A stretch of 64,000 bases of DNA, from NCBI RefSeq assembly GCF_054482595.1, contig NZ_CM137008.1, one strand, 5' to 3'. The translations under genes and the position numbers were made by a program. How positions within the stretch are numbered: the stretch's first letter is position 1; each line of letters opens with the position of its first letter. This document shows, piece by piece, positions 2,109-52,621 of the stretch. A model generated the notes under the pieces. It was not told the DNA's origin. It was given only the letters and a program-made list of their open reading frames with translations, and searched no databases.

Positions 2109-3284
2109 ATGCGTCTGTTTTCTATTCCTCCACCCACGCTACTGGCGGGGTTTCTGGCGGTATTAATTGGCTACGCCAGTTCAGCGGCAATAATCTGGCA
2201 AGCAGCGATTGTCGCCGGAGCCACCACTGCACAAATCTCTGGCTGGATGACGGCGCTGGGGCTGGCAATGGGCGTCAGTACGCTGACTCTGACATTATGG
2301 TATCGCGTACCTGTTCTCACCGCATGGTCAACGCCTGGCGCGGCTTTGTTGGTCACCGGATTGCAGGGACTAACACTTAACGAAGCCATCGGCGTTTTTA
2401 TTGTCACCAACGCGTTAATAGTCCTCTGCGGCATAACGGGACTCTTTGCTCGTCTGATGCGCATTATTCCGCACTCGCTTGCGGCGGCAATGCTTGCCGG
2501 GATTTTATTACGCTTTGGTTTACAGGCGTTTGCCAGTCTGGACGGTCAATTTACGTTGTGTGGAAGTATGTTGCTGGTATGGCTGGCAACCAAGGCCGTT
2601 GCGCCGCGCTATGCGGTAATTGCCGCGATGATTATTGGGATCGTGATCGTCATCGCGCAAGGTGACGTTGTCACAACTGATGTTGTCTTTAAACCCGTTC
2701 TCCCCACTTATATTACCCCTGATTTTTCGTTTGCTCACAGCCTGAGCGTTGCACTCCCCCTTTTTCTGGTGACGATGGCATCGCAAAACGCACCGGGTAT
2801 CGCAGCAATGAAAGCAGCTGGATATTCGGCTCCTGTTTCGCCATTAATTGTATTTACTGGATTGCTGGCACTGGTTTTTTCCCCTTTCGGCGTTTATTCC
2901 GTCGGTATTGCGGCAATCACCGCGGCTATTTGCCAAAGCCCGGAAGCGCATCCGGATAAAGATCAACGTTGGCTGGCAGCTGCCGTTGCAGGCATTTTCT
3001 ATTTGCTCGCAGGTCTGTTTGGTAGTGCCATTACCGGGATGATGGCTGCCCTGCCCGTAAGTTGGATCCAGATGCTGGCAGGTCTGGCGCTGTTGAGTAC
3101 CATTGGCGGCAGTTTGTATCAGGCGCTGCATAATGAGCGTGAGCGCGACGCGGCGGTGGTGGCATTTCTGGTAACGGCAAGTGGATTGACGCTGGTCGGG
3201 ATTGGTTCTGCGTTCTGGGGATTAATTGCCGGAGGCGTTTGTTACGTGGTGTTGAATTTAATCGCTGACAGAAACCGATATTGA
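2109..3284 (+). CDS. ydcO: BenE-family membrane transporter
   Basis: Track ORF 1848..3284; start moved to internal ATG (MRLFSIPPPTLLAGFLAV...) giving 391 aa; polytopic hydrophobic protein. Confidence 0.8.
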   Translation: MRLFSIPPPTLLAGFLAVLIGYASSAAIIWQAAIVAGATTAQISGWMTALGLAMGVSTLTLTLWYRVPVLTAWSTPGAALLVTGLQGLTLNEAIGVFIVTNALIVLCGITGLFARLMRIIPHSLAAAMLAGILLRFGLQAFASLDGQFTLCGSMLLVWLATKAVAPRYAVIAAMIIGIVIVIAQGDVVTTDVVFKPVLPTYITPDFSFAHSLSVALPLFLVTMASQNAPGIAAMKAAGYSAPVSPLIVFTGLLALVFSPFGVYSVGIAAITAAICQSPEAHPDKDQRWLAAAVAGIFYLLAGLFGSAITGMMAALPVSWIQMLAGLALLSTIGGSLYQALHNERERDAAVVAFLVTASGLTLVGIGSAFWGLIAGGVCYVVLNLIADRNRY

Positions 3285-3323
3285 CATCCTCCACGCCCTG
3301 AAGGACGTGGATCCCTGCTACGT

Positions 3324-4532
3324 TCAGGCTGTCGCCTGAATCATTTCGGTGGGTTCCTGCTTCAACGGGCGGCCTGACTGCACCATCTCTCCACAGGCAA
3401 GAACGGCGTGCCCCGCCGCTAAAATGTTACGAGCGCCATTTACATCGGCGTTCGCTGTATATCCACATACCTGGCATCTGAATTTACTTTGTGACAGGCG
3501 GTTCTCTTTCGCTGTATGACCACAGTACGCGCAACGCTGGCTTGTATACGCTGGCGGAACAGCAAGCACCTGACCGCCACGCCAGAGCTGCTTGTACTCA
3601 AGCTGGCGGTGCATTTCATACCAGCCCTGATCCAGTATCGAACGGTTTAAACCTGATTTTGCCCGGACATTGCGCCCCGGCTGGCTGACCGTACCCGCTG
3701 CTGACTTTGACATGTTGCTGACCTTCAAATCCTCAATGACTATCATTGCGTGGTTTTTGCTGACGGCCGTTGTGACTTTGTGAAGGTAGTCCCTGCGGAT
3801 ATTTGCGATACAGGAATGCAGTCGCTGTATTTTGCGTTTCTGCTTCTGCCAGTTGTTGCTGAATTTGACCTTGCGGCTTAACTGTCGCTGAAGTCTCGCC
3901 AGCGTCTTCTGGTTTTTCTGAAAACTGTTTACAGGCTCAAAGACTGTGCCATCTGACAGCGTGGCGAGTTTAGCCACGCCAGCATCCAGCCCGACCATTG
4001 ATGCTGAAGGGTGAGCCGGAGTGGATACTTCACTTTCTGTCTGAATACTGATGTACCACTTACCGCAGGACTGGCTGACAGTGACATTTTTCACAACACC
4101 CGTGACCTGACGGCTGTTCCGGTAGCGCATCCAGCCCAGTTTCGGCAGAAAAATACGGCTGTTTTCCTGATCGAGCTTAACGCCCTGCGGGTAGCGGAAT
4201 GCATCATTCTGTCCCCGCTTTTTGAATCGGGGAAAAGCAGCCCGCTTCCGGAAGAAGTTTTTGTAAGCCCGCTCAAGGTCTTTCAGTGACTGTTGCAATG
4301 GCTGTGAGGGAGAATCTTTAAGCCATTGCGTTTCAGTGGCATTTTTCCACTCAACCAGCCAGGAAGCCATTTTCCCGTAAGGGATGTATTTATTACCGGC
4401 CTCATGATTCTCATTCTGACGTGCCAGAGCACGATTGAAAACGAAACGACATGCGCCTGCGAAGCGCCTCATTTCACACTCCTGTTGACCACCTGGTCTT
4501 AACTGGAATTTAAATGCCTGTAATCGTTTCAC
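3324..4532 (-). CDS. insQ: TnpB (OrfB) RNA-guided endonuclease of IS200/IS605 family
   Basis: 402-aa ORF with RuvC-like motifs [22 protein letters not shown] and zinc finger CAYCG...CQVCG. Confidence 0.9.
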
Positions 4533-4539
4533 AGGTCAA

Positions 4540-5046
4540 ATGATACTTTGGTCTGTGAAAAAAGAAACCGATATCCGGCGTGGAAGGCATTGTGTTTTCC
4601 TGATGCATGTTCACCTGGTCTTTGTCACCAGATACCGACGCCAGATTTTTGACCATGACGCGACAGAAAAACTACGCACTTACTTTTCAAATGTATGTGC
4701 TTATTTTGAAGCTGAACTGGTTGAAATGGATGGCGAACCAGATCACGTCCATTTGTTAATTAACTAACCTCCCAAACTGGCGATATCCAGTCTGGTAAAC
4801 AGCCTCAAAGGCGTATCGGGTAGGTTACTGCGACGAGATCGACCAGATATTGCAGTCAGGTATTACTACAAAGGCGTTTTGTGGAGTCCTGGCTATTTTG
4901 CCAGTAGCTGCGGAGGTGCGCCAATATCCGTCATCCGCCAATACATTGAACAACAGCAAACACCTGGTCAGGTGGAAAACCGCGCCTTATATCCCCGCCC
5001 TGAAGGATGGGGTTTTACGGCGCACCGGATAAAAAGCGCCATCTAA
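4540..5046 (+). pseudogene. IS200-type HuH/Y1 transposase TnpA interrupted by in-frame TAA at 4765-4767
   Basis: N-terminal part ...HVHLVFVTRYRRQIF...DGEPDHVHLLIN then TAA; same frame continues PPKLAISSLVNSLKGVSGRLL...YYKGVLWSPGYFASSCGGAPISVIRQYIEQQ to stop at 5044-5046. Confidence 0.7.
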
Positions 5047-15787: not shown

Positions 15788-16016
15788 CGACTAAAAGCCT
15801 CTTTGCGTCACATTTTTACAACAATTATTGCAGAGAAGATTAATGCCATTGGAATGAAGAGAGTAACGAATGGTTAAACTGGCTAACCCGAATGACGAAA
15901 AATTCTGGAAAACAGCACGCAATTTCGTCAGGTGATTATTTTCGTCCCTAAGGAAACCACATAGGATGCTCACGGGTGCCTGAGACTTTCTGTTTTCAGG
16001 CTAACCGGGAATCAGA

Positions 16017-16061
16017 AAGACGAAGGCCCCGACCGATATTTCTATCAACCGAGGCCAACGA

Positions 16062-16072
<11 letters not shown>
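16017..16072 (-). ncRNA. sokB: sokB antisense RNA of the hokB/mokB locus; position inferred, boundaries approximate
   Basis: Placed antisense to the mokB translation-initiation region by analogy with hok/sok architecture; no independent sequence recognition. Confidence 0.35.
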
Positions 16073-16269
<197 letters not shown>

Positions 16270-16684: not shown

Positions 16685-16748
16685 CTTCCGATGTAGACCC
16701 GTATTCTTCGCCTGTACCACGGGTCGGTTTTAGTACAGGCGTTTTCTT
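16685..16748 (+). ncRNA. rydC: RydC small RNA (Hfq-dependent, pseudoknot-forming)
   Basis: 64 nt CTTCCGATGTAGACCCGTATTCTTCGCCTGTACCACGGGTCGGTTTTAGTACAGGCGTTTTCTT matches the RydC sequence as I remember it; ends in hairpin plus U-tract. Confidence 0.8.
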
Positions 16749-16758
16749 TAAATATCCT

Positions 16759-17289
16759 TCAGGAACGTTTACGCGGCATCATGCGTAGAAGTGTGTTGTC
16801 CTTCCAGAAATAGTGGTGTGCCAGTGCAGCCGCAGCGTGCAACCCGATGAGAAAATATCCCAGATTCGCCAGCGTCTCATGCCACGACTTTAAGCTATCA
16901 ACCCGTTCGAAATTGGCCTCTGAAGCGTAAGGCATCGTCAAACCAAACACAAACCACGGGTTGCCCCGGTTATACATCATCACCAAACCAATCACTGGCA
17001 GCGCAATAAACAGGAGATAAATCACCAAATGTCCCAAATGCGCCAGTCCCGTCATCATCGGTTTCGGCTTAGGTATAATCGGCGGGGTTGGGTATTTCAG
17101 TCTTAACAAAAGACGAACCACCATCAGCACGAGAATTGAGATGCCACAGGAAACATGAATCATGTTGATGAGCGGCCGATCGCTACGTGGGAAGAAACCC
17201 CGAAACTCCATTGCGCAATACGCTGCGATAACCAGCAAAAAGACCAGCCAGTGAATGCTGATTTGTAACCTTGAGTATTTATTTTCCAT
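16759..17289 (-). CDS. cybB: Cytochrome b561
   Basis: Track ORF trimmed to MENKYSRLQISIHWLVFLLVIAAY... (176 aa). Confidence 0.9.
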   Translation of the reverse strand: MENKYSRLQISIHWLVFLLVIAAYCAMEFRGFFPRSDRPLINMIHVSCGISILVLMVVRLLLRLKYPTPPIIPKPKPMMTGLAHLGHLVIYLLFIALPVIGLVMMYNRGNPWFVFGLTMPYASEANFERVDSLKSWHETLANLGYFLIGLHAAAALAHHYFWKDNTLLRMMPRKRS

Positions 17290-17477
17290 AACATTTCCTG
17301 CTTTAACATAATTTTCCGTTAACATAACGGGCTTTTCTCAAAATTTCATTAAATATTGTTCACCCGTTTTCAGTACGTTACGTTTCACTGTAAGAATGGA
17401 GATTGCCCATCCCACAATCCTGGGCTAAGCCTGGAAAGGATCAATTTTCATCCGAACGTTCCTGACAGGAGAAAACC

Positions 17478-18479
17478 ATGAGTAAAGTTGGTATTAACGG
17501 TTTTGGTCGTATCGGTCGACTGGTGTTGCGTCGATTACTTGAAGTCAAAAGCAACATAGACGTTGTCGCTATTAATGATCTTACTTCCCCAAAAATTCTC
17601 GCCTATCTGCTGAAACATGATTCAAACTATGGTCCGTTCCCCTGGAGCGTTGATTTTACGGAAGATTCACTTATCGTTGATGGGAAAAGTATCTCGGTTT
17701 ACGCCGAAAAAGAGGCTAAAAATATTCCGTGGAAAGCGAAAGGTGCAGAAATCATTGTCGAATGTACTGGCTTTTATACCTCCGCCGATAAATCGCAGGC
17801 GCATCTTGATGCTGGTGCGAAGAAGGTGTTGATTTCCGCTCCTGCCGGTGAAATGAAAACCATCGTTTATAACGTTAATGACGACACTCTGGATGGCAAC
17901 GATACCATTGTTTCCGTGGCGTCATGCACCACTAACTGCCTTGCGCCGATGGCCAAAGCCTTGCATGACAGTTTCGGGATAGAAGTCGGCACGATGACGA
18001 CCATTCATGCCTATACTGGCACCCAGTCACTGGTGGATGGCCCGCATGGTAAAGATTTACGTGCTTCACGCGCCGCGGCAGAAAATATCATTCCCCACAC
18101 TACGGGCGCGGCAAAAGCCATTGGTCTGGTGATCCCGGAACTGAGCGGCAAACTGAAAGGTCATGCGCAACGCGTGCCGGTGAAAACAGGTTCGGTCACT
18201 GAACTGGTATCGATTCTCGGAAAAAAAGTGACTGCCGAAGAGGTGAATAACGCACTTAAACAAGCAACCACCAATAACGAGTCATTTGGTTATACCGATG
18301 AAGAAATAGTCTCTTCCGATATCATTGGCAGCCATTTCGGTTCGGTGTTTGATGCCACGCAAACGGAAATTACCGCCGTGGGCGATTTACAACTGGTGAA
18401 AACGGTCGCCTGGTACGATAACGAATATGGCTTCGTCACGCAGCTTATTCGCACCCTCGAAAAATTCGCTAAACTCTGA
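17478..18479 (+). CDS. gapC: Glyceraldehyde-3-phosphate dehydrogenase GapC, intact 333-aa frame
   Basis: [19 protein letters not shown]..., catalytic SCTTNCLAP motif; continuous ORF. Confidence 0.9.
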
Positions 18480-18486
18480 CGCGCAC

Positions 18487-18518
18487 AGGCGGAGGAAAAA
18501 ACCTCCGCCTCTTTCACT
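18487..18518 (+). terminator. Intrinsic terminator after gapC (hairpin shared with convergent aldA)
   Basis: Perfect 9-bp stem aggcggagg/cctccgcct with A6 loop, followed by tctttcac. Confidence 0.5.
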
Positions 18519-18520
18519 CA

Positions 18521-19960
18521 TCAAGACTGTAAATAAACCACCTGGGTCTGCAGATATTCATGCAGGCCATGTTTACCATCTGCGCCGCCAATACCGGATT
18601 TACGCCATCCGGCGTGGAAGCCTTGCATAGCTTCGAAGTTTTCACGGTTGATGTAAGTTTCACCAAACTTCAGCCCTTTAATGGCTTTCATCGCGACGTT
18701 CAGATTTTGGGTATAGATTGATGAGGTCAGGCCGTAATCACTGTCATTAGCCATTGAGATAGCATCTTCCAGCGTGTCAAATGCGACTACCGGCAGAACC
18801 GGGCCAAAGGTTTCCTCATGCATAATCGACATTTCCTGGCGAACATCCAGCAGCAATGTCGGCGGATAATAATATCCTTTCCCCTCTACCGCTTTGCCAC
18901 CCAACGCCACTCTCGCCCCTTCTTCTACTGCGCGCGCCACTTTTTGCTCGACCCTTTCCAGCGCCGCGGCGTTAATCAACGGCCCCATCGCAATGTCGTT
19001 GCGTTCAGCGGGGTTACCAAATTGAACCGCCTGCATCGCTTCACCCAGCCGATTGACGAACTGATCATAAATGCCTTTCTGTACATAAACACGTTCTGCA
19101 CAGTTACACACTTGCCCACTATTAATGACACGTGAATCAACGATGGCTTTGACTGCCAGTTCAAGATCGGCATCGTCCATTACGATAGCTGGTGCTTTAC
19201 CCCCCAGTTCCAGGCACACTTTGGTGATGTTTTTCGCCGCAGTCGCCATGATCTTCTCACCTGCAGAGACGCTGCCTGTCATACTGACCATTGCGACCTT
19301 TGGGTTACCCGCCAGTTCTTGCCCAACGGTTTCACCACGCCCCAGAACAAGGTTAAACACGCCGCGCGGAAGGCCTATTTCATCGACGATTTTGGCGAAT
19401 GCAATCGCATTGTTTGGCGTAAATTCACTGGGTTTAATGACAATGGTATTACCAGTCAAAAGAGCGGGAGCCATTTTGCGGGCAATGAGGAAGAACGGGA
19501 AGTTCCACGGCAGAATGCCGGTAGTCACACCAAGCGCACGTTTAAACAGAAGAATATTTTCTCCTGGACGATCGCTTTGAATAATCTCGCCCTCGTAACG
19601 CCGTGCCCACTCCGCCATGTAATCGATATAGTCGGCAGTAAAAGCCACTTCGACTTCAGCCAGCTGCTGGATCTTGCCCCCTTCTTCAACAATCAGCGCA
19701 CTGATTTCACTGGCGCGTTCGCGGATCCCGGCGGAGATTTTGCGCAACCAACTGGCGCGTTCAATTGCAGGCAACGCTTCCCATTCTGGTTGTGCACGTT
19801 CTGCTGCATCGATTGCCTTACGGGCATCCTCGGCCTGACCATCGGGAATGCGGGAAATGACAGCCTCTGTAGCAGGGTTTACCACATCAATCCATGCGTC
19901 TCCACGCCAGGTAACAAACTGTCCATCAATATACATAGGATGTTGAACGGGTACTGACAT
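18521..19960 (-). CDS. aldA: Lactaldehyde dehydrogenase (NAD-dependent aldehyde dehydrogenase)
   Basis: 479-aa ORF MSVPVQHPMYIDGQFVTWRG... with ALDH catalytic region VCLELGGKAP and VCNCAERVYV. Confidence 0.9.
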   Translation of the reverse strand: MSVPVQHPMYIDGQFVTWRGDAWIDVVNPATEAVISRIPDGQAEDARKAIDAAERAQPEWEALPAIERASWLRKISAGIRERASEISALIVEEGGKIQQLAEVEVAFTADYIDYMAEWARRYEGEIIQSDRPGENILLFKRALGVTTGILPWNFPFFLIARKMAPALLTGNTIVIKPSEFTPNNAIAFAKIVDEIGLPRGVFNLVLGRGETVGQELAGNPKVAMVSMTGSVSAGEKIMATAAKNITKVCLELGGKAPAIVMDDADLELAVKAIVDSRVINSGQVCNCAERVYVQKGIYDQFVNRLGEAMQAVQFGNPAERNDIAMGPLINAAALERVEQKVARAVEEGARVALGGKAVEGKGYYYPPTLLLDVRQEMSIMHEETFGPVLPVVAFDTLEDAISMANDSDYGLTSSIYTQNLNVAMKAIKGLKFGETYINRENFEAMQGFHAGWRKSGIGGADGKHGLHEYLQTQVVYLQS

Positions 19961-34190: not shown

Positions 34191-37100
34191 TTAGAACGTT
34201 TTCTTAAAGTTCAGCATCACGCCTTTGTCGCTGATGCCGTCCTCTTTCCAGTGATACGCATCCAGATTCAGCGAACTTTCTTTGCTACTGTACTTCACGC
34301 CGACGCTCGCCAGGCTGTTGATACCGCCGCCCTTCTGACCGTCATCGACGTTAAAGTGCTGGCTGCCTGCCCCTGCAAGGCTTGCCGTGCGCTGGCTCTT
34401 GCTGTAGCTCAGGTTCGGCCCGCCTTCCAGCGTCGCATTCGCGCTCCAGCCGCCTTTCCCTGCGTAGTCCAGTTTCAGCCCGACGATGCTGTCCACCGCC
34501 GTTTCGCTGCCACTGTTCATATTCAGGTTAAAGTCTCCGGCATTGCGCTCCTGATAGCCACCTTCCAGTGTGTGACGCAGTTTTACACCCGCATATGGCG
34601 TAACCTTCAGTCCTTCGCTCGGTTCGAAAGTCTTCGCCACTTCGCTGCGGAACTCCAGGTACTGCTGCTTCACGTCGGTATCAGCCGTTTTGTTTGTGTT
34701 GCTAAATGCAATCGAACGGCTACTGTCAAGGTTGTGAACGTCATAACGCAATGCGTTATTCCAGTTCATGCCGTTGTCGAAGGACATCTGGTGCTTCAGG
34801 CCAAAGAACTGGCTATAACCACCTGTGACGCCATTATCACCCGCTTTCTGCGCACCATCACCATCGAGACGAGCGATACCGTACTCCAGACTCATCGTCT
34901 GGCTTTCGCTCAGGTCGATGGTTTTACGCAATGCCAGCATGTCGTATTCGGTATTATTACCTAACTCGGCACGTGGATCGCCTTTCGCAACAACGTTGAA
35001 CGCCAGACCGTTACCCACCTTCGGCGCGGCATCCGCCAGCATGCTGAAGCGGTTGCTTAACACACGCGCTTCACGGAATACCGTGGTCGCCTGGCTACCG
35101 CTCACCTGCTTCAGGGCGCTATTCAGTTCAGCAGTGGTGCCCACGTTCAGGCTGGTATACAGCTCGTTATTGGTGTAACCCGCATCCAGTGCCTTCGCCA
35201 CATCGTTCACCGAAGCATCGGTCGCCACATCGGTGTAGGCGTTTTTGCTCATGATGACGTCAACGTTGCCGCTGGCATCGGTGCTGCCTTTGGCGGTCCA
35301 TACCACGGACGTTGAGGTGATGGCATCGGCGTCGGTCAGGTTGATGCCTTCCACCACGTTGTCGAAACTGACCGTGGTGTCTGCCGTACCGGCGGCGAAA
35401 CCGGTGTTGATCCCGACACCATTCATGCTGGCGTTGTTAACCTTCAGTTTACCGGCGCTGCCGTCAACGTTGGTACCGACGATATAGCCGTTGAGGTTGT
35501 TACTGCTGCCATCGCTACTACCGCTATCAGTCGTTTCACTGAAAGGTGAAGTGGTGTAAGTGTTTGGCATGTCCGGCAACGTGTAGTCGGTGTAATGCAC
35601 TTCGGTATTGTTACCGCTGTTGCCGTTCACCCCTTCCACATTCACGCTGTCGCCCTGCTTAATCAACCCCGAACCAGTCACGCCGTCGGCAATCACCACC
35701 GTACCGTTGTTAACGATATGACCTTCTGTGCCCAGTACGCTGAACGCAAACGAGTCGTTAGCAAAAATATTGATCGTGCCGTTGTTCTCAATTACCGCAT
35801 CGGCGGTGGCATTGGCATCCAGTTGCATACCAGTCAATCCGGTATCGGTGGTGCCTTCGGTGCCGAGATTGATAACGCCGTTGTTAACCAGTTGTGCGTT
35901 TTTATCACCTTCCATCGCCACGGCATTGTTGCCGCTGATGTTCATCACGCCATCGTTGAGGGCAACATAGTTGTTGTGGGTGAATTTAACTGCGCTGGCG
36001 TTGTCTTTATCGAAGTTAATCACCCCGCCATCCTGGTTCCACAGGAAGGCATCGCTTTCTGTCGCACCAGCGGTACTTACCGCCACAGTGACTTTCGCAT
36101 CCACCACGCCCTTGTTAATAAACTGGCTGGCGCCGTCGTCATAGTGAATAGCGCCCGCGCCAAGTGCGGCATCCAGCGTCATTTCACCGGTGTTATATAA
36201 CGTGGCGTTAGCATTGCTTCCCTGGAAGCGAATGGCGTTTTTACTGTTATCAAGGATGAGCTTGCCGCTGTTGTTGAACGTTGATTGGTCGTCAATATCC
36301 AGCGTCCCGGCATTGTTATTTTCATCCTGATAACCCATTTTCCAGGTCCCCGCGTTATTCACCACCGCAGAGTTATAGAGAATGGCACCTTTACGCGCCT
36401 CGCCGCCTGCAAGGTTATTGAATACAGCATCGCCCTGGGCGTTAACGCGCGCCGACGCGATACCGCTGTTATTCACCGTGCCATCGTTAAGCTGTAAGGT
36501 TGACAGTGAACCGGTATTATTAATTACCGCGTTGCTGTTTTTCTCAATTTTTACGACGTCATTAAGCGTTCCGTTGTTATTGAAGGTTCCTCCTTCCAGA
36601 GTCACCGTGTTCAATACACCTTCATTGGTTAACGCACCGCCTTCATTCACGACGATGGCTGAGCTAATGGTTCCGCTCGACTCGTTAACCAGCGCACCAT
36701 TTTCGAGTATCCTGATCGTTCCATTTTTAACAGCACCCGCACTGGTGACATCCCCGTTGATAATCGCACCTGACGATAATAATACGGTCTCACCCGCAGA
36801 ACTTAATACATCGCCATCATCATATAAATCGGCAATATAATTATCCGTTGGATTATATTCATCGGCCCCCTGGCAAACGCCAAAGGTACAAATTGTGCCA
36901 TAGTTGATAATAAGCCCAGTGCCATCGTTATAGAATGCCTGACCATTTTCCGCGTTAATGTTGATTACGCCTGTCTGGTCATTAATGGCGGTGCCTTCGT
37001 GATAAACCGCCATGCCGACGAGTTTATTCACACCGAGAGAATCGTTGTAATTTTCATTTTTCTCCAGGTTGATGGTTCCCTGGTTAATGACCGTATTAGT

Positions 37101-40085
37101 ATTCCCATACGCCGCCATCCCCGCACCGGCGTTGTAGACAGTAATCACACCATTCTCGTGGTTGGTTGCCGTGGCTTTAGTTAATGCCCCATTATAGGCA
37201 TCGGTACCTGAAGCCATTCCCACACCGAAATCTTTCGCCGTGCTATTTGCAACATTATTACGCAGCGATGTTTCATCATTTTCATCGACCCACAGCGTAT
37301 CCAGGGTGATTTGCCCTTCGTTATCCGCGGTTGATTTATCGATAGCCAACATCCCCACGCTGCCACGACCATACATCTCAATAATACCCGTTTCGCCGTT
37401 CAGAATGGATGACGAGTAGCTGGCAAGCATACCTGTCAGCCCTAATGCCTTGTTATTGAAAGAGGTACCATCAGACAAGTTCCACTCTGCCGGATAATTC
37501 AGCACACTGTGCTGATTCATCATTTTGGTGGTCATGGTACCATTGTTAACGCCAATCCCACCGTATTCAACGTCAAAGACTTTTGGTGCCGGGTCGGTAC
37601 CAAAATCGTACATCGCCAGGCCAATGGATCCGTTATTGATTACCGTTGAATCTTTATTCCAGGCAGCCGCAAAACCGATATTTTTCAGTTCCACTTCACC
37701 GTTGTTTGTCGCCTTCGCACCAGAATCAATACTAATGGTGGATAACGCTACACGATAATAATAAGTGAAAGAATCCACATCACTCATATCAAACGTTGCG
37801 TCAGCGCCAATCTCCAGCTCCGCGCCATGGCTCAACTGAATGAGATTTTCGAACCCCAGCGGGAACTCGCCGCTGATGGTTGACTCACCATTCAGGTAGA
37901 CCGAGGAATGCCCATCAACGTTAATAAGCGGTGTGTCTCCGATACCACGACGAGATGCGGCAGGTTTTGAGCCATCATCCATGACATTTTTTTCACCGAC
38001 AAAATGAACACCGCCATTAAGCGTAAAGGTATTGTCATCGCCAGCAATAACAATACCCGCAATGTGTTCCTGAGCACCGTCGTAACTCGCATAGGAACGC
38101 GACGTGGTTTCACTATCAGCAACAACGGTTAACTGACCATCCAGCGTGACGTCGTTGTTGTCACCGCTGATATTTACCCCGGTTGAGGGATTAAAGAAGT
38201 AAGGCTGCGCATTATCAGCTTTCTGATCTTTATCAACCAGAATACTGCCCGCTATTTCGATAGTATTACCATCACCCGAAACATTAACACCTGTCGCTTC
38301 TTGCCCTGTCACATTCAGCCCATAAGTCGACAGCGTCATGTTGTTATTATCACCAGAGACATCAAGACCGGTGGAGAAATCCCCAACGTCTAACCCGCCC
38401 GCAAGTGAAATATTGGCTTTATCGCCTGCAACGCTGATACCGGTTCCGGCGTTGGTCGCGGTAATATCACCAACGTTAACAAATGTCGCATTATTACCGT
38501 CGATCTGAATGCCGATTGCATTTTCACCTGTAGCGGCCTGACCAACATTGAGGTCACCCATGTTGATCACGCTGACACCATCACCATCAAGCAGCATGCC
38601 GATAGAGTTTTCCTCGACGACCGTAATATTACCTTTGTTGCTGACGAACGTGTTGTTGCCGACAACGTCAATACCGTGCGCACCGCCGCTAACGTATAAG
38701 TCGCCTTCCTGTTTGATGATGGCATCGTCACCGACAACTTTCGAGCCAGTGGAATTCGCACCGTCAACGGTCATAGTACCTTTATTATCAACCCGCGCAT
38801 TATCGCCATTGATAAGGCTACCCGTACCGCCATTGGTGATGGTCGAGTCGCCCGCAGTGTTTAGCTTGGTATTATCGCCATTGATGATTACCGCGGTACC
38901 GCCATCAACTTCCGTCTCGCCATTATTGTTAATGGTGATATTGTCGCCGGTGAGTATACCGACAACCGAGCCTTCTCCGATGGCCGTCGTTTTGCCGTCG
39001 TTGTTGAGGGTGATGTTGTCACCATCAACCGTCATGACAGTACCGCCATTCAGCGCCGTGTTGCCGCCCTGATCGGTGATGATCGCGTTACCAAACTCAA
39101 TCGCATTCCCGGTTGTGCCGTCAACAACGACGCCGGCCTCTTTAGTGATGTGGATGAGTCCATCATCGTCGTAACTCCAGGTGATGCCACCTGAGGTATT
39201 TACGCCATCAAAGACAACGGTGTTGCTGTCGTCATGGACTGTCCAGGACTTAACTATCGTCTCCTTGCCCTCAGGCGCCGTTAAGGTGTAGCTCCCATCG
39301 GCATTTTGGCTGTAGGTAAAGGTGGTTTCGCGAATTTTGACGGTTTTCGCGTCCTGATCCCAGGTTACGTCATTTTTATAGACGACAGGATCGTGTTTAA
39401 CCGGGGTATCGCCACCATCGTCTGGCGGAACAGGCGTATCACCGCCGTCGTCTGGAACTGGCGTATCACCGCCATCATCTGGTGGAACCGGCGTATCACC
39501 GCCGTCATCTGGTGGAACCGGCATATCACCGCCGTCATCTGGCGGAACTGGCGTATCACCGCCGTCATCTGGCGGAACTGGCGTATCACCGCCGTCATCT
39601 GGCGGAACCGGCGTATCATCGCCGTCATCTGGCGGAACTGGCGTATCACCGCCGTCATCTGGCGGAACTGGCGTATCACCGCCGTCATCTGGCGGAACCG
39701 GCGTATCACCGCCGTCATCTGGCGGAACCGGCGTATCACCGCCGTCGTCTGGCGGAACAGGCGTATCACCGCCATCATCCGGAACTGGGGAGTTATTATG
39801 GTGGTGATTGTCATCGTCACTTAAGGTATATATAGCAATTCCCGTAGCTACTGCAGCAAGACCTGCAGCTGCCCATGGTAAAACTGCACTATCTTTATTT
39901 TCTCTGCACTCCGCGGATAAATTTTCTAGCTGCTCTTTGCTCAGGGAATGAATATTTGCCGGACATGTTATCTTACTGGACTTACGTGTTTTTTCGGTTG
40001 AGTCGGGTATTGAAGTATCCGCAGCCCATGTCTGGCTACTTAACGCCATGGCAACACAAACAGACAATAATTTTTTCCTTTGCAT
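34191..40085 (-). CDS. ydbA: Giant autotransporter (type Va) YdbA, uninterrupted: signal peptide, Pro/Asp/Gly-rich decapeptide repeat stalk, beta-helical passenger, C-terminal beta-barrel ending in Phe
   Basis: Track ORF 34191..40124 trimmed to MQRKKLLSVCVAMALSSQTWA (SD AAGGA 8 nt upstream); passenger full of GxNxT/GDNxxV beta-helix repeats; terminal ...VMLNFKKTF. Confidence 0.85.
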   Translation of the reverse strand: MQRKKLLSVCVAMALSSQTWAADTSIPDSTEKTRKSSKITCPANIHSLSKEQLENLSAECRENKDSAVLPWAAAGLAAVATGIAIYTLSDDDNHHHNNSPVPDDGGDTPVPPDDGGDTPVPPDDGGDTPVPPDDGGDTPVPPDDGGDTPVPPDDGDDTPVPPDDGGDTPVPPDDGGDTPVPPDDGGDMPVPPDDGGDTPVPPDDGGDTPVPDDGGDTPVPPDDGGDTPVKHDPVVYKNDVTWDQDAKTVKIRETTFTYSQNADGSYTLTAPEGKETIVKSWTVHDDSNTVVFDGVNTSGGITWSYDDDGLIHITKEAGVVVDGTTGNAIEFGNAIITDQGGNTALNGGTVMTVDGDNITLNNDGKTTAIGEGSVVGILTGDNITINNNGETEVDGGTAVIINGDNTKLNTAGDSTITNGGTGSLINGDNARVDNKGTMTVDGANSTGSKVVGDDAIIKQEGDLYVSGGAHGIDVVGNNTFVSNKGNITVVEENSIGMLLDGDGVSVINMGDLNVGQAATGENAIGIQIDGNNATFVNVGDITATNAGTGISVAGDKANISLAGGLDVGDFSTGLDVSGDNNNMTLSTYGLNVTGQEATGVNVSGDGNTIEIAGSILVDKDQKADNAQPYFFNPSTGVNISGDNNDVTLDGQLTVVADSETTSRSYASYDGAQEHIAGIVIAGDDNTFTLNGGVHFVGEKNVMDDGSKPAASRRGIGDTPLINVDGHSSVYLNGESTISGEFPLGFENLIQLSHGAELEIGADATFDMSDVDSFTYYYRVALSTISIDSGAKATNNGEVELKNIGFAAAWNKDSTVINNGSIGLAMYDFGTDPAPKVFDVEYGGIGVNNGTMTTKMMNQHSVLNYPAEWNLSDGTSFNNKALGLTGMLASYSSSILNGETGIIEMYGRGSVGMLAIDKSTADNEGQITLDTLWVDENDETSLRNNVANSTAKDFGVGMASGTDAYNGALTKATATNHENGVITVYNAGAGMAAYGNTNTVINQGTINLEKNENYNDSLGVNKLVGMAVYHEGTAINDQTGVININAENGQAFYNDGTGLIINYGTICTFGVCQGADEYNPTDNYIADLYDDGDVLSSAGETVLLSSGAIINGDVTSAGAVKNGTIRILENGALVNESSGTISSAIVVNEGGALTNEGVLNTVTLEGGTFNNNGTLNDVVKIEKNSNAVINNTGSLSTLQLNDGTVNNSGIASARVNAQGDAVFNNLAGGEARKGAILYNSAVVNNAGTWKMGYQDENNNAGTLDIDDQSTFNNSGKLILDNSKNAIRFQGSNANATLYNTGEMTLDAALGAGAIHYDDGASQFINKGVVDAKVTVAVSTAGATESDAFLWNQDGGVINFDKDNASAVKFTHNNYVALNDGVMNISGNNAVAMEGDKNAQLVNNGVINLGTEGTTDTGLTGMQLDANATADAVIENNGTINIFANDSFAFSVLGTEGHIVNNGTVVIADGVTGSGLIKQGDSVNVEGVNGNSGNNTEVHYTDYTLPDMPNTYTTSPFSETTDSGSSDGSSNNLNGYIVGTNVDGSAGKLKVNNASMNGVGINTGFAAGTADTTVSFDNVVEGINLTDADAITSTSVVWTAKGSTDASGNVDVIMSKNAYTDVATDASVNDVAKALDAGYTNNELYTSLNVGTTAELNSALKQVSGSQATTVFREARVLSNRFSMLADAAPKVGNGLAFNVVAKGDPRAELGNNTEYDMLALRKTIDLSESQTMSLEYGIARLDGDGAQKAGDNGVTGGYSQFFGLKHQMSFDNGMNWNNALRYDVHNLDSSRSIAFSNTNKTADTDVKQQYLEFRSEVAKTFEPSEGLKVTPYAGVKLRHTLEGGYQERNAGDFNLNMNSGSETAVDSIVGLKLDYAGKGGWSANATLEGGPNLSYSKSQRTASLAGAGSQHFNVDDGQKGGGINSLASVGVKYSSKESSLNLDAYHWKEDGISDKGVMLNFKKTF
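39401..39790. repeat. Tandem array of about 13 units of a 30-bp repeat (one 27-bp unit) inside ydbA, encoding PPDDGGDTPV
   Basis: ggcggaacYggcgtatcaccgccgtcatct repeated head-to-tail in exact 30-nt register from 39481 to 39780 with degenerate flanking units. Confidence 0.9.
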
Positions 40086-40492
40086 ATAAAATTCCTTAGA
40101 TCTAGACCGTGCGTAACAAGCCATGCAGAATTTGAAGATAAATCGTAGTAAATATTCATAGTGAAATAAGCAATAAAGAAATGCTTATATAATTCACAAA
40201 ATCAATATTAAAATCAGGCAAGTAAAAGCATACAAAAAAACAGTTGATGGAATTATATTCCACAAAAAACTCACTTCAATCTAAAAATTAACGACAAAAA
40301 ACAAAAACACACTAATAATTCATTGACGCTGCATATATATTTTGTGATTACATATATATTGGTAATGATTTGTTATTTAAGGGAAGGATATATAAGGTTT
40401 TTGTAGAAATACCCACGGTAATTAAGCATGCTAACGTCAGTTTAAATACTGTAAAAGATCATTAATAGATACATTTTGTAGCCAACTATAAT

Positions 40493-40819
40493 TTATTTGC
40501 GCAACCATTTACCATTAACTCCCTGAACATATTGCCCCGACTTCGCGCGAGCAACAAGCTTTTGTCCAGCCAGTTTGGCTATCTCTTTAGTGGATACATT
40601 ATTTTGCTTTGCCAGTTGTTGGTAACTATGGTTACGAGCTTCATTAATATCTTTTACTAATGCCTGTGTTTCGGCATCCGTTTGTAGCGCCACCAGGTAA
40701 CCGTTAAGCGTTTCACCTACCCGCCCCTGACTTCTGGCTTCGTTCAGGGTTAAAGCCATTGCACTGTCGCTCATCAGGCCAATGGCCCATACAGCTATGA
40801 GTAATGTTCTTTTCATCAT
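40493..40819 (-). CDS. ydbL: DUF1318-family periplasmic protein YdbL
   Basis: Track ORF trimmed to MMKRTLLIAVWAIGLMSDSAMA... (108 aa). Confidence 0.8.
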   Translation of the reverse strand: MMKRTLLIAVWAIGLMSDSAMALTLNEARSQGRVGETLNGYLVALQTDAETQALVKDINEARNHSYQQLAKQNNVSTKEIAKLAGQKLVARAKSGQYVQGVNGKWLRK

Positions 40820-50994: not shown

Positions 50995-51510
<516 letters not shown>

Positions 51511-51517
51511 CACTAAC

Positions 51518-51542
51518 GCCCGCACATTGCTGCGGGCTTTTT
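51518..51542 (+). terminator. Intrinsic terminator of uspF
   Basis: gcccgca-cattgc-tgcgggc followed by T5. Confidence 0.6.
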
Positions 51543-51685
51543 GATTCATTTCGCAAATGTGCTGACATTTTCCCCTCTAATCCGTACCATACACGCCACA
51601 GTTTTTATATCAGATTTCTTATGCTGGGCGTTCCGGCATGACGCATACTCTTCTGATGCCATATAACGAATTGAGTCGCTTTTAA

Positions 51686-52621
51686 ATGTCGCAAAATCAA
51701 GAAATTAGCAAGAAAGAACAATACAACCTGAACAAATTACAAAAACGCCTGCGTCGTAACGTGGGCGAAGCCATTGCTGACTTCAATATGATTGAAGAAG
51801 GCGATCGCATCATGGTTTGCCTCTCCGGGGGTAAAGACAGCTATACCATGCTGGAGATTCTGCGCAATTTGCAGCAAAGCGCGCCAATCAATTTTTCGCT
51901 GGTGGCTGTTAACCTCGATCAAAAGCAACCGGGCTTCCCGGAACACGTTCTGCCCGAGTATCTTGAAAAGCTGGGCGTTGAGTACAAGATTGTTGAAGAG
52001 AACACTTACGGTATCGTGAAAGAGAAGATTCCAGAGGGCAAAACCACTTGCTCACTGTGTTCTCGGCTACGTCGCGGTATCCTTTATCGCACCGCAACGG
52101 AACTGGGGGCGACGAAGATCGCGTTGGGCCACCATCGTGACGATATCCTGCAAACGTTGTTCTTAAATATGTTCTACGGCGGCAAGATGAAAGGTATGCC
52201 TCCGAAACTGATGAGCGATGATGGCAAACATATTGTTATTCGTCCGCTGGCCTACTGCCGCGAGAAAGATATTCAGCGATTTGCCGATGCAAAAGCGTTC
52301 CCGATTATTCCGTGCAACCTGTGCGGTTCACAGCCTAACCTGCAACGTCAGGTGATTGCTGACATGTTGCGTGACTGGGATAAACGTTATCCAGGGCGTA
52401 TCGAGACGATGTTCAGCGCGATGCAGAATGTGGTGCCGTCACATCTGTGCGATACCAACCTGTTCGATTTCAAAGGCATCACCCACGGTTCTGAAGTGGT
52501 TAACGGGGGTGATCTGGCGTTTGATCGCGAAGAGATCCCACTACAACCGGCGGGCTGGCAGCCAGAAGAAGATGAAAATCAGTTGGATGAGTTACGGCTG
52601 AATGTGGTTGAAGTGAAATAA
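51686..52621 (+). CDS. ttcA: tRNA 2-thiocytidine(32) synthetase TtcA, full length
   Basis: 311-aa ORF with PP-loop SGGKDS and CxxC pairs. Confidence 0.95.

Follow-up and report, generated by a model that had tools for sequence, protein, structure and literature searches.

The gapC gene in the 64,000-nucleotide stretch of DNA that was analyzed here (the window) was found to be intact, and it is very probably an ordinary functional allele that encodes an NAD-dependent, phosphorylating glyceraldehyde-3-phosphate dehydrogenase (GAPDH) as a condition-specific supplement to GapA. The presence of an intact gapC is already known (it was reported in 1998) and is typical of the species. For this gene the reading frame, family, catalytic residues, K-12 lesions, population frequencies, dN/dS ratio, and synteny were computed here. 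The activity of a 99% identical protein and the control of expression by fresh water, sigma-S, and similar conditions are taken from the literature.

The locus is composed of the following features:

16759..17289, minus strand: cybB (cytochrome b561 / superoxide oxidase), the divergent neighbor of gapC and locus-defining

17290..17477: the divergent cybB-gapC intergenic region of 188 nt, which must contain the gapC promoter

17467..17471, plus strand: Shine-Dalgarno sequence AGGAG of gapC, 6 nt ahead of the ATG, as read from the sequence

17478..18479, plus strand: gapC coding sequence, 333 codons with an ATG start and a TGA stop, from the ORF list and the raw sequence

18487..18510, no strand assigned: GC-rich hairpin GGCGGAGG-AAAAAA-CCTCCGCC, between the convergent gapC and aldA and just past the gapC stop

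18521..19960, minus strand: aldA (aldehyde dehydrogenase A), the convergent neighbor of gapC and locus-defining

Translation of 17478..18479 gave zero internal stops. An earlier sequence-only reading had described gapC as a continuous 333-codon frame that keeps its catalytic cysteine motif, and both statements were borne out by this open reading frame and by the motif ASCTTNCL with Cys150. The gene order cybB-gapC-aldA is the same as that in K-12 MG1655 and in strain XH990, where the counterpart of the window gene is annotated as "gap" (WP_021556770.1). The AGGAG sequence is unchanged in K-12 and in 16 of 16 sampled strains (full-length loci taken in even steps along a similarity ranking), and the intergenic region differs from K-12 by 5 SNPs, none of which is private to the window when K-12 and the sampled strains are compared. 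The hairpin at 18487..18510 is the same in K-12 and was calculated to fold with -18.1 kcal/mol (z = -4.2), a value equaled by 0 of 200 shuffles. It is probably a bidirectional terminator for gapC and aldA, and it was not called in the terminator scan because its T tract is weak. The mechanical open reading frame of cybB (16759..17325, minus strand) begins at an upstream ATG and spans 188 aa, as opposed to the 176 aa from the annotated start at 17289; this longer frame would take 36 nt of the cybB-gapC intergenic region.

GapC was scored at 448.1 bits against the NCBIfam model for type I GAPDH (TIGR01534, cutoff 367.2), with residues 3-325 aligned to profile positions 1-330. The Pfam domains Gp_dh_N (PF00044, 5.7e-36, residues 3-102) and Gp_dh_C (PF02800, 1.6e-58, residues 155-313) correspond to the N-terminal NAD-binding domain and the C-terminal catalytic domain, respectively. 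These matches place the gapC frame well beyond a chance open reading frame. The motifs of the family were located as follows:

17499..17516, plus strand: GFGRIG at codons 8-13, the GxGxxG dinucleotide-binding motif, read from the sequence

17577..17579, plus strand: Asp34, in AINDL, read from the sequence

17919..17942, plus strand: active-site motif ASCTTNCL at codons 148-155, with the catalytic Cys150 at 17925..17927

In an alignment of 85 diverse GAPDHs, G10 and G13 are invariant, and G8, N33, and the positions of Cys150 and His177 are at least 90% conserved. The active-site motif satisfies the pattern [ASV]-S-C-[NT]-T-x(2)-[LIM], and the catalytic His177 is found within TIHAYT. Numbered as in the solved E. 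coli enzyme, the residues of the Ps site (Thr180, Thr182, and Arg232) and of the new Pi site (Ser149, Thr151, Thr209, and Gly210) are complete in GapC, and His207 is likewise kept. Crystal structures of that enzyme, EcGAPDH1, have S149, C150, T151, H177, T180, T182, H207, T209, G210, and R232 in contact with the substrate or phosphate. GapC would thus be expected to act as a homotetrameric, NAD-dependent, phosphorylating type I GAPDH in which Cys150 attacks glyceraldehyde-3-phosphate with His177 as the base. The hydride would be transferred to NAD+, and phosphate would then free 1,3-bisphosphoglycerate.

The fold, the chemistry, the SCTTNCLAP motif, and the type I family are all shared with GapA, the housekeeping GAPDH of K-12 (b1779). 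The two proteins are 46% identical, which makes GapC a distinct paralogue of GapA, and gapC, unlike gapA, is dispensable and, by published accounts, conditionally expressed. Identity as a type II GAPDH was rejected, the NCBIfam model being failed by a wide margin.

The closest matches to GapC in the PDB are the entries of the 7C5F series (330 of 333 residues identical, 725 bits). These belong to EcGAPDH1 (UniProt P58072 for O157:H7; PDB 7C5F-7C5R and 7C7K), for which the gene, the locus, and the catalytic and phosphate-site residues are as in the window GapC. The three substitutions are S73, D104, and H190 in the window protein versus A, E, and R in EcGAPDH1. In the 2021 paper that describes EcGAPDH1, whose authors did not use the name gapC, the wild-type enzyme was reported to have a KM of 0.73 mM for G3P and a kcat of 224,926 per min at 50 °C and pH 10, conditions that tell little of the contribution in vivo. 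The C150A mutant was inactive and the activity of H177A was reduced about 8000-fold. The enzyme assay of the cloned gene that had been proposed from the sequence is thus, in effect, already in print for this protein with its 3 substitutions in 333 residues. The next solved type I GAPDHs (PDB 6IQM, 8HMN, 7WWW, and 5J9G) follow at about 460-480 bits, a long way behind the E. coli entries, and the enzyme from Bacillus stearothermophilus (1GD1) is well below these at 309 bits. We take 5J9G to be from Lactobacillus, an origin that would agree with the older idea of gapC as a "Gram-positive-like" paralogue.

Could GapC be an enzyme with the GAPDH fold and a different role, being like the erythrose-4-phosphate dehydrogenase Epd/GapB, arsenate-linked, NADP-dependent, or gluconeogenic? 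E. coli already has Epd, a diverged paralogue with a changed substrate, and the transcription of gapC in K-12 clusters with gluconeogenic, RpoS-dependent genes. However, the Epd/GapB models (TIGR01532, 279.3 versus a cutoff of 530.55; NF010058, 282.6 versus 539) and the ArsJ-associated GAPDH model (308 bits versus a cutoff of 450) were far below their cutoffs, so that both identities were rejected, whereas the general type I model passes. Asp34, which favors NAD over NADP, is kept in GapC. The near-identical EcGAPDH1 oxidizes G3P with NAD+, and its structures hold NAD, G3P, the thioacyl intermediate, and 1,3-BPG. GapC may be used in the gluconeogenic direction, which would be the same chemistry. 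A different role is therefore very unlikely, and the assignment of GapC as an NAD-dependent type I GAPDH is preferred.

The gapC gene of MG1655 (b4493) is annotated as a pseudogene of 1001 nt. It was formerly divided into gapC_1 (b1417) and gapC_2 (b1416), and the older literature uses the names gapC_1/gapC_2 for K-12. The sequence-only reading had stated that gapC is broken into pseudogene fragments in K-12, and it was correct in this. The K-12 pseudogene is 98% identical to the window gapC at the DNA level, and its neighbors cybB and aldA, its ribosome-binding site, and its terminator hairpin are all as in the window. The alignment to K-12 gapC that the same reading had put forward as a check located two lesions, K39* and a 1-nt deletion in the A7 run:

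17592..17594, plus strand: codon 39, AAA (Lys) in the window and TAA in K-12, from A to T at nt 115 in the alignment to b4493

18221..18227, plus strand: codons 248-250, A7 in the window and A6 in K-12, at nt 744-750 of the alignment

The deletion of 1 nt from the A run in K-12 shifts the frame past about codon 249. Neither the codon-39 TAA nor the A-run deletion, by which a K-12-type pseudogene is recognized, is found in the window copy. Beyond the lesions there are about 20 SNPs between the two genes, and the missense changes of K-12 relative to the window are R18G, S73A, D104E, and H190R. The second of the lesions is at a homopolymer, a classic place for sequencing errors, and the intact frame could in principle be an assembly artefact in which A6 was miscalled as A7. 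This explanation is so improbable as to be negligible, since the codon-39 TAA, a substitution rather than a homopolymer length, is likewise absent, and the 20 or so additional SNPs also separate the gene from that of K-12. Furthermore, the independent genome of XH990 has the identical intact allele, and 13 of the 16 sampled genomes have A7 and an intact gene. We therefore regard the intact frame as genuine.

The gapC locus was found in 5417 of 5426 complete E. coli genomes. The 45-mer with the K-12 stop was present, as an exact match, in 1155 of the 5426 genomes and the 45-mer with the K-12 A6 frameshift in 1050; the frequency of the frameshift is this exact count, and the intact state was assessed from the sampled loci. 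Thirteen of the 16 sampled loci have an intact 333-codon gene with A7, by annotation and by translation. The other three are annotated as "frameshifted; internal stop" and have the K-12 lesions with the stop at codon 39. A dead gapC of the K-12 type is thus present in about a fifth (~21%) of sequenced E. coli, with many of these alleles in K-12 derivatives and others in animal and human isolates. Together, the counts of the lesion 45-mers and the 13 intact loci of 16 indicate that an intact gapC is the norm in E. coli and not a peculiarity of this strain. Since about one genome in five is without a functional gapC and shows no obvious harm, the gene is dispensable in at least some lifestyles. 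A route to the loss of gapC that is independent of the K-12 type was seen in a seventeenth locus, L019 (NZ_CP144926.1), from the raw-milk strain SCPM-O-B-7615, where an IS1A element at 2579..4756 has taken the place of the 3' portion of gapC together with the end of aldA. Five matches to gapC are on records labeled as plasmids.

The housekeeping gene gapA was found in 5425 of the 5426 complete genomes, with at least 99% DNA identity in 5424. The suggestion that this strain may carry a second functional GAPDH besides gapA was therefore a reasonable one to make from the sequence. The gapC gene is much more polymorphic than gapA: most alleles share 95-99% identity with that of the window, and another 98 are at 90-95%. 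Among 14 distinct intact gapC alleles, the mean dS was determined to be 0.090 and the mean dN 0.0033 (Nei-Gojobori), and the ratio of 0.037 indicates strong purifying selection on gapC. Annotated orthologues that are 86-96% identical to GapC occur in E. albertii, Citrobacter, Trabulsiella, Klebsiella, Enterobacter, Pseudescherichia, Scandinavium, and others. The order cybB-gapC-aldA-ydcF-hrpA is kept in Citrobacter and gapC-aldA-ydcF in Klebsiella. These orthologues and their synteny indicate that gapC has long been resident at this locus in the Enterobacteriaceae and is not a recent import.

The window protein has one rare residue:

18045..18047, plus strand: codon 190, CAT (His), a rare allele in the S-loop; CGT (Arg) in the other sampled E. 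coli

The other intact E. coli alleles examined (13 of 13) and the 15 enterobacterial orthologues all have Arg190, and the 45-mer that encodes His190 is present in 14 of the 5426 genomes. The carriers were obtained from human clinical isolates, poultry, a pig, and an indoor environmental sample. A fresh sequencing error is unlikely, since the allele is common to 14 genomes from several sources. In the alignment, residue 190 is an S-loop insertion of a single residue that 72 of 84 diverse type I GAPDHs lack. Among those that have it, the residue is S, N, R, H, K, A, or I, and the consensus of the family around it is P-H-K-D. With a variable insertion and such a consensus, His190 is unlikely to be damaging, and we infer from the sequence that the His190 allele would be active. 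It is very unlikely that His190, which lies in the insertion that sets enterobacterial GapC apart, is an adaptive change in cofactor handling, tetramer stability, or the temperature profile; if it were, the lineage would have GapC kinetics unlike those of the characterized EcGAPDH1.

It may also be asked whether the gene, with its frame intact, is functionally dead or dying, either because R190H cripples the tetramer or the interactions with NAD or because the gene is silent, so that GapA would act alone. His190 is rare, at a site that is fixed as Arg in enterobacterial GapC, and the gene is dispensable, with about 21% natural pseudogenes. A convincing sigma-70 promoter for gapC was not found in the consensus scan, which gave a single weak site at 17283..17312, overlapping the start of cybB, and fewer sites than the shuffles predict. 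Against this, residue 190 is variable across the 84 type I GAPDHs and His is well tolerated there, the reading frames are open by annotation in all of the 14 genomes that carry His190, and the upstream region and ribosome-binding site match those of the other intact strains. A dead or dying gapC is thus unlikely, and a functional allele is favored. By eye, TGTAAGAAT near 17388..17396 resembles an extended -10 element and is at most a candidate for one.

The published work on expression is from several strains. According to later papers, Espinosa-Urgel and Kolter (1998) reported that gapC is intact and expressed in environmental isolates, and these papers add that laboratory strains have kept the activation of the gapC promoter and have a truncating mutation in the gene. 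The ribosome-binding site, the hairpin, and all but five of the intergenic bases are unchanged in K-12, which fits this activation of the promoter despite the broken gene. In K-12, the transcripts of gapC-1 and gapC-2 depend on RpoS and are higher in slow growth, and a ChIP peak of the sigma-S RNA polymerase lies between gapC_1 and cybB. The gapC transcript was detected in EPEC and was lower in a csrA mutant. UniProt P58072 is the intact GapC of O157:H7, and gapC serves as a qPCR marker for E. coli. On the available evidence GapC would be a condition-specific back-up to GapA and not the main glycolytic enzyme.

Other features of the window were compared with those of K-12 and of XH990 (NZ_CP019359.1, a urine isolate from Zhejiang). 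The window differs from XH990 at 6 of 64,000 positions (5537, 13522, 34639, 50989, 58428, and 60458). The counterpart of ydbA (34191..40124, minus strand) is an intact open reading frame of 1977 aa, for which the XH990 annotation begins at 40085 and gives an autotransporter of 1964 aa. In K-12, IS2D and IS30C interrupt ydbA, which is a pseudogene there; in the window it is whole. Directly after ydbA, at about 40085..40493, the window continues with ydbL/ynbE/ydbH/ldhA. In K-12, paaK, paaX, paaY, and ynbG adjoin ydbA, and a comparison of the annotation tables found none of these annotated in the window. On the K-12 map we take the whole feaRB-tynA-paa block to lie between ydbL and ydbA, and this block appears to be absent from the window. 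The uspF and ttcA genes are adjacent (51076..52621). We assume that the Rac prophage is located between them on the K-12 map, in which case this strain would be without Rac at that site.

Two RNAs in the window are unannotated in the XH990 record. The sRNA RydC (16685..16748, plus strand; Rfam, 92.5 bits) lies just past cybB, and at 15974..16125 (plus strand; Rfam, 109.7 bits) is the sok antitoxin RNA that belongs to the hokB/sokB module. An element of the IS200/IS605 type at 3324..5046 has an intact insQ, which encodes a TnpB-family RNA-guided endonuclease, and the tnpA beside it is annotated in XH990 as a pseudogene with an internal stop.

The importance of the intact gapC is small beyond its correct annotation, and the two lesions of K-12 gapC can conveniently mark the lineage of a subset of E. 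coli. The niche of the gene is loosely defined: it includes stationary phase and either low temperature or fresh water, with gluconeogenic flux as a further possibility. A second GAPDH that is maintained by selection is kept in roughly four of every five sequenced E. coli. K-12 is atypical at gapC, and thus metabolic models and knockout reasoning that start from K-12 ("gapA is the only GAPDH") are not automatically transferable to wild, clinical, and production strains.
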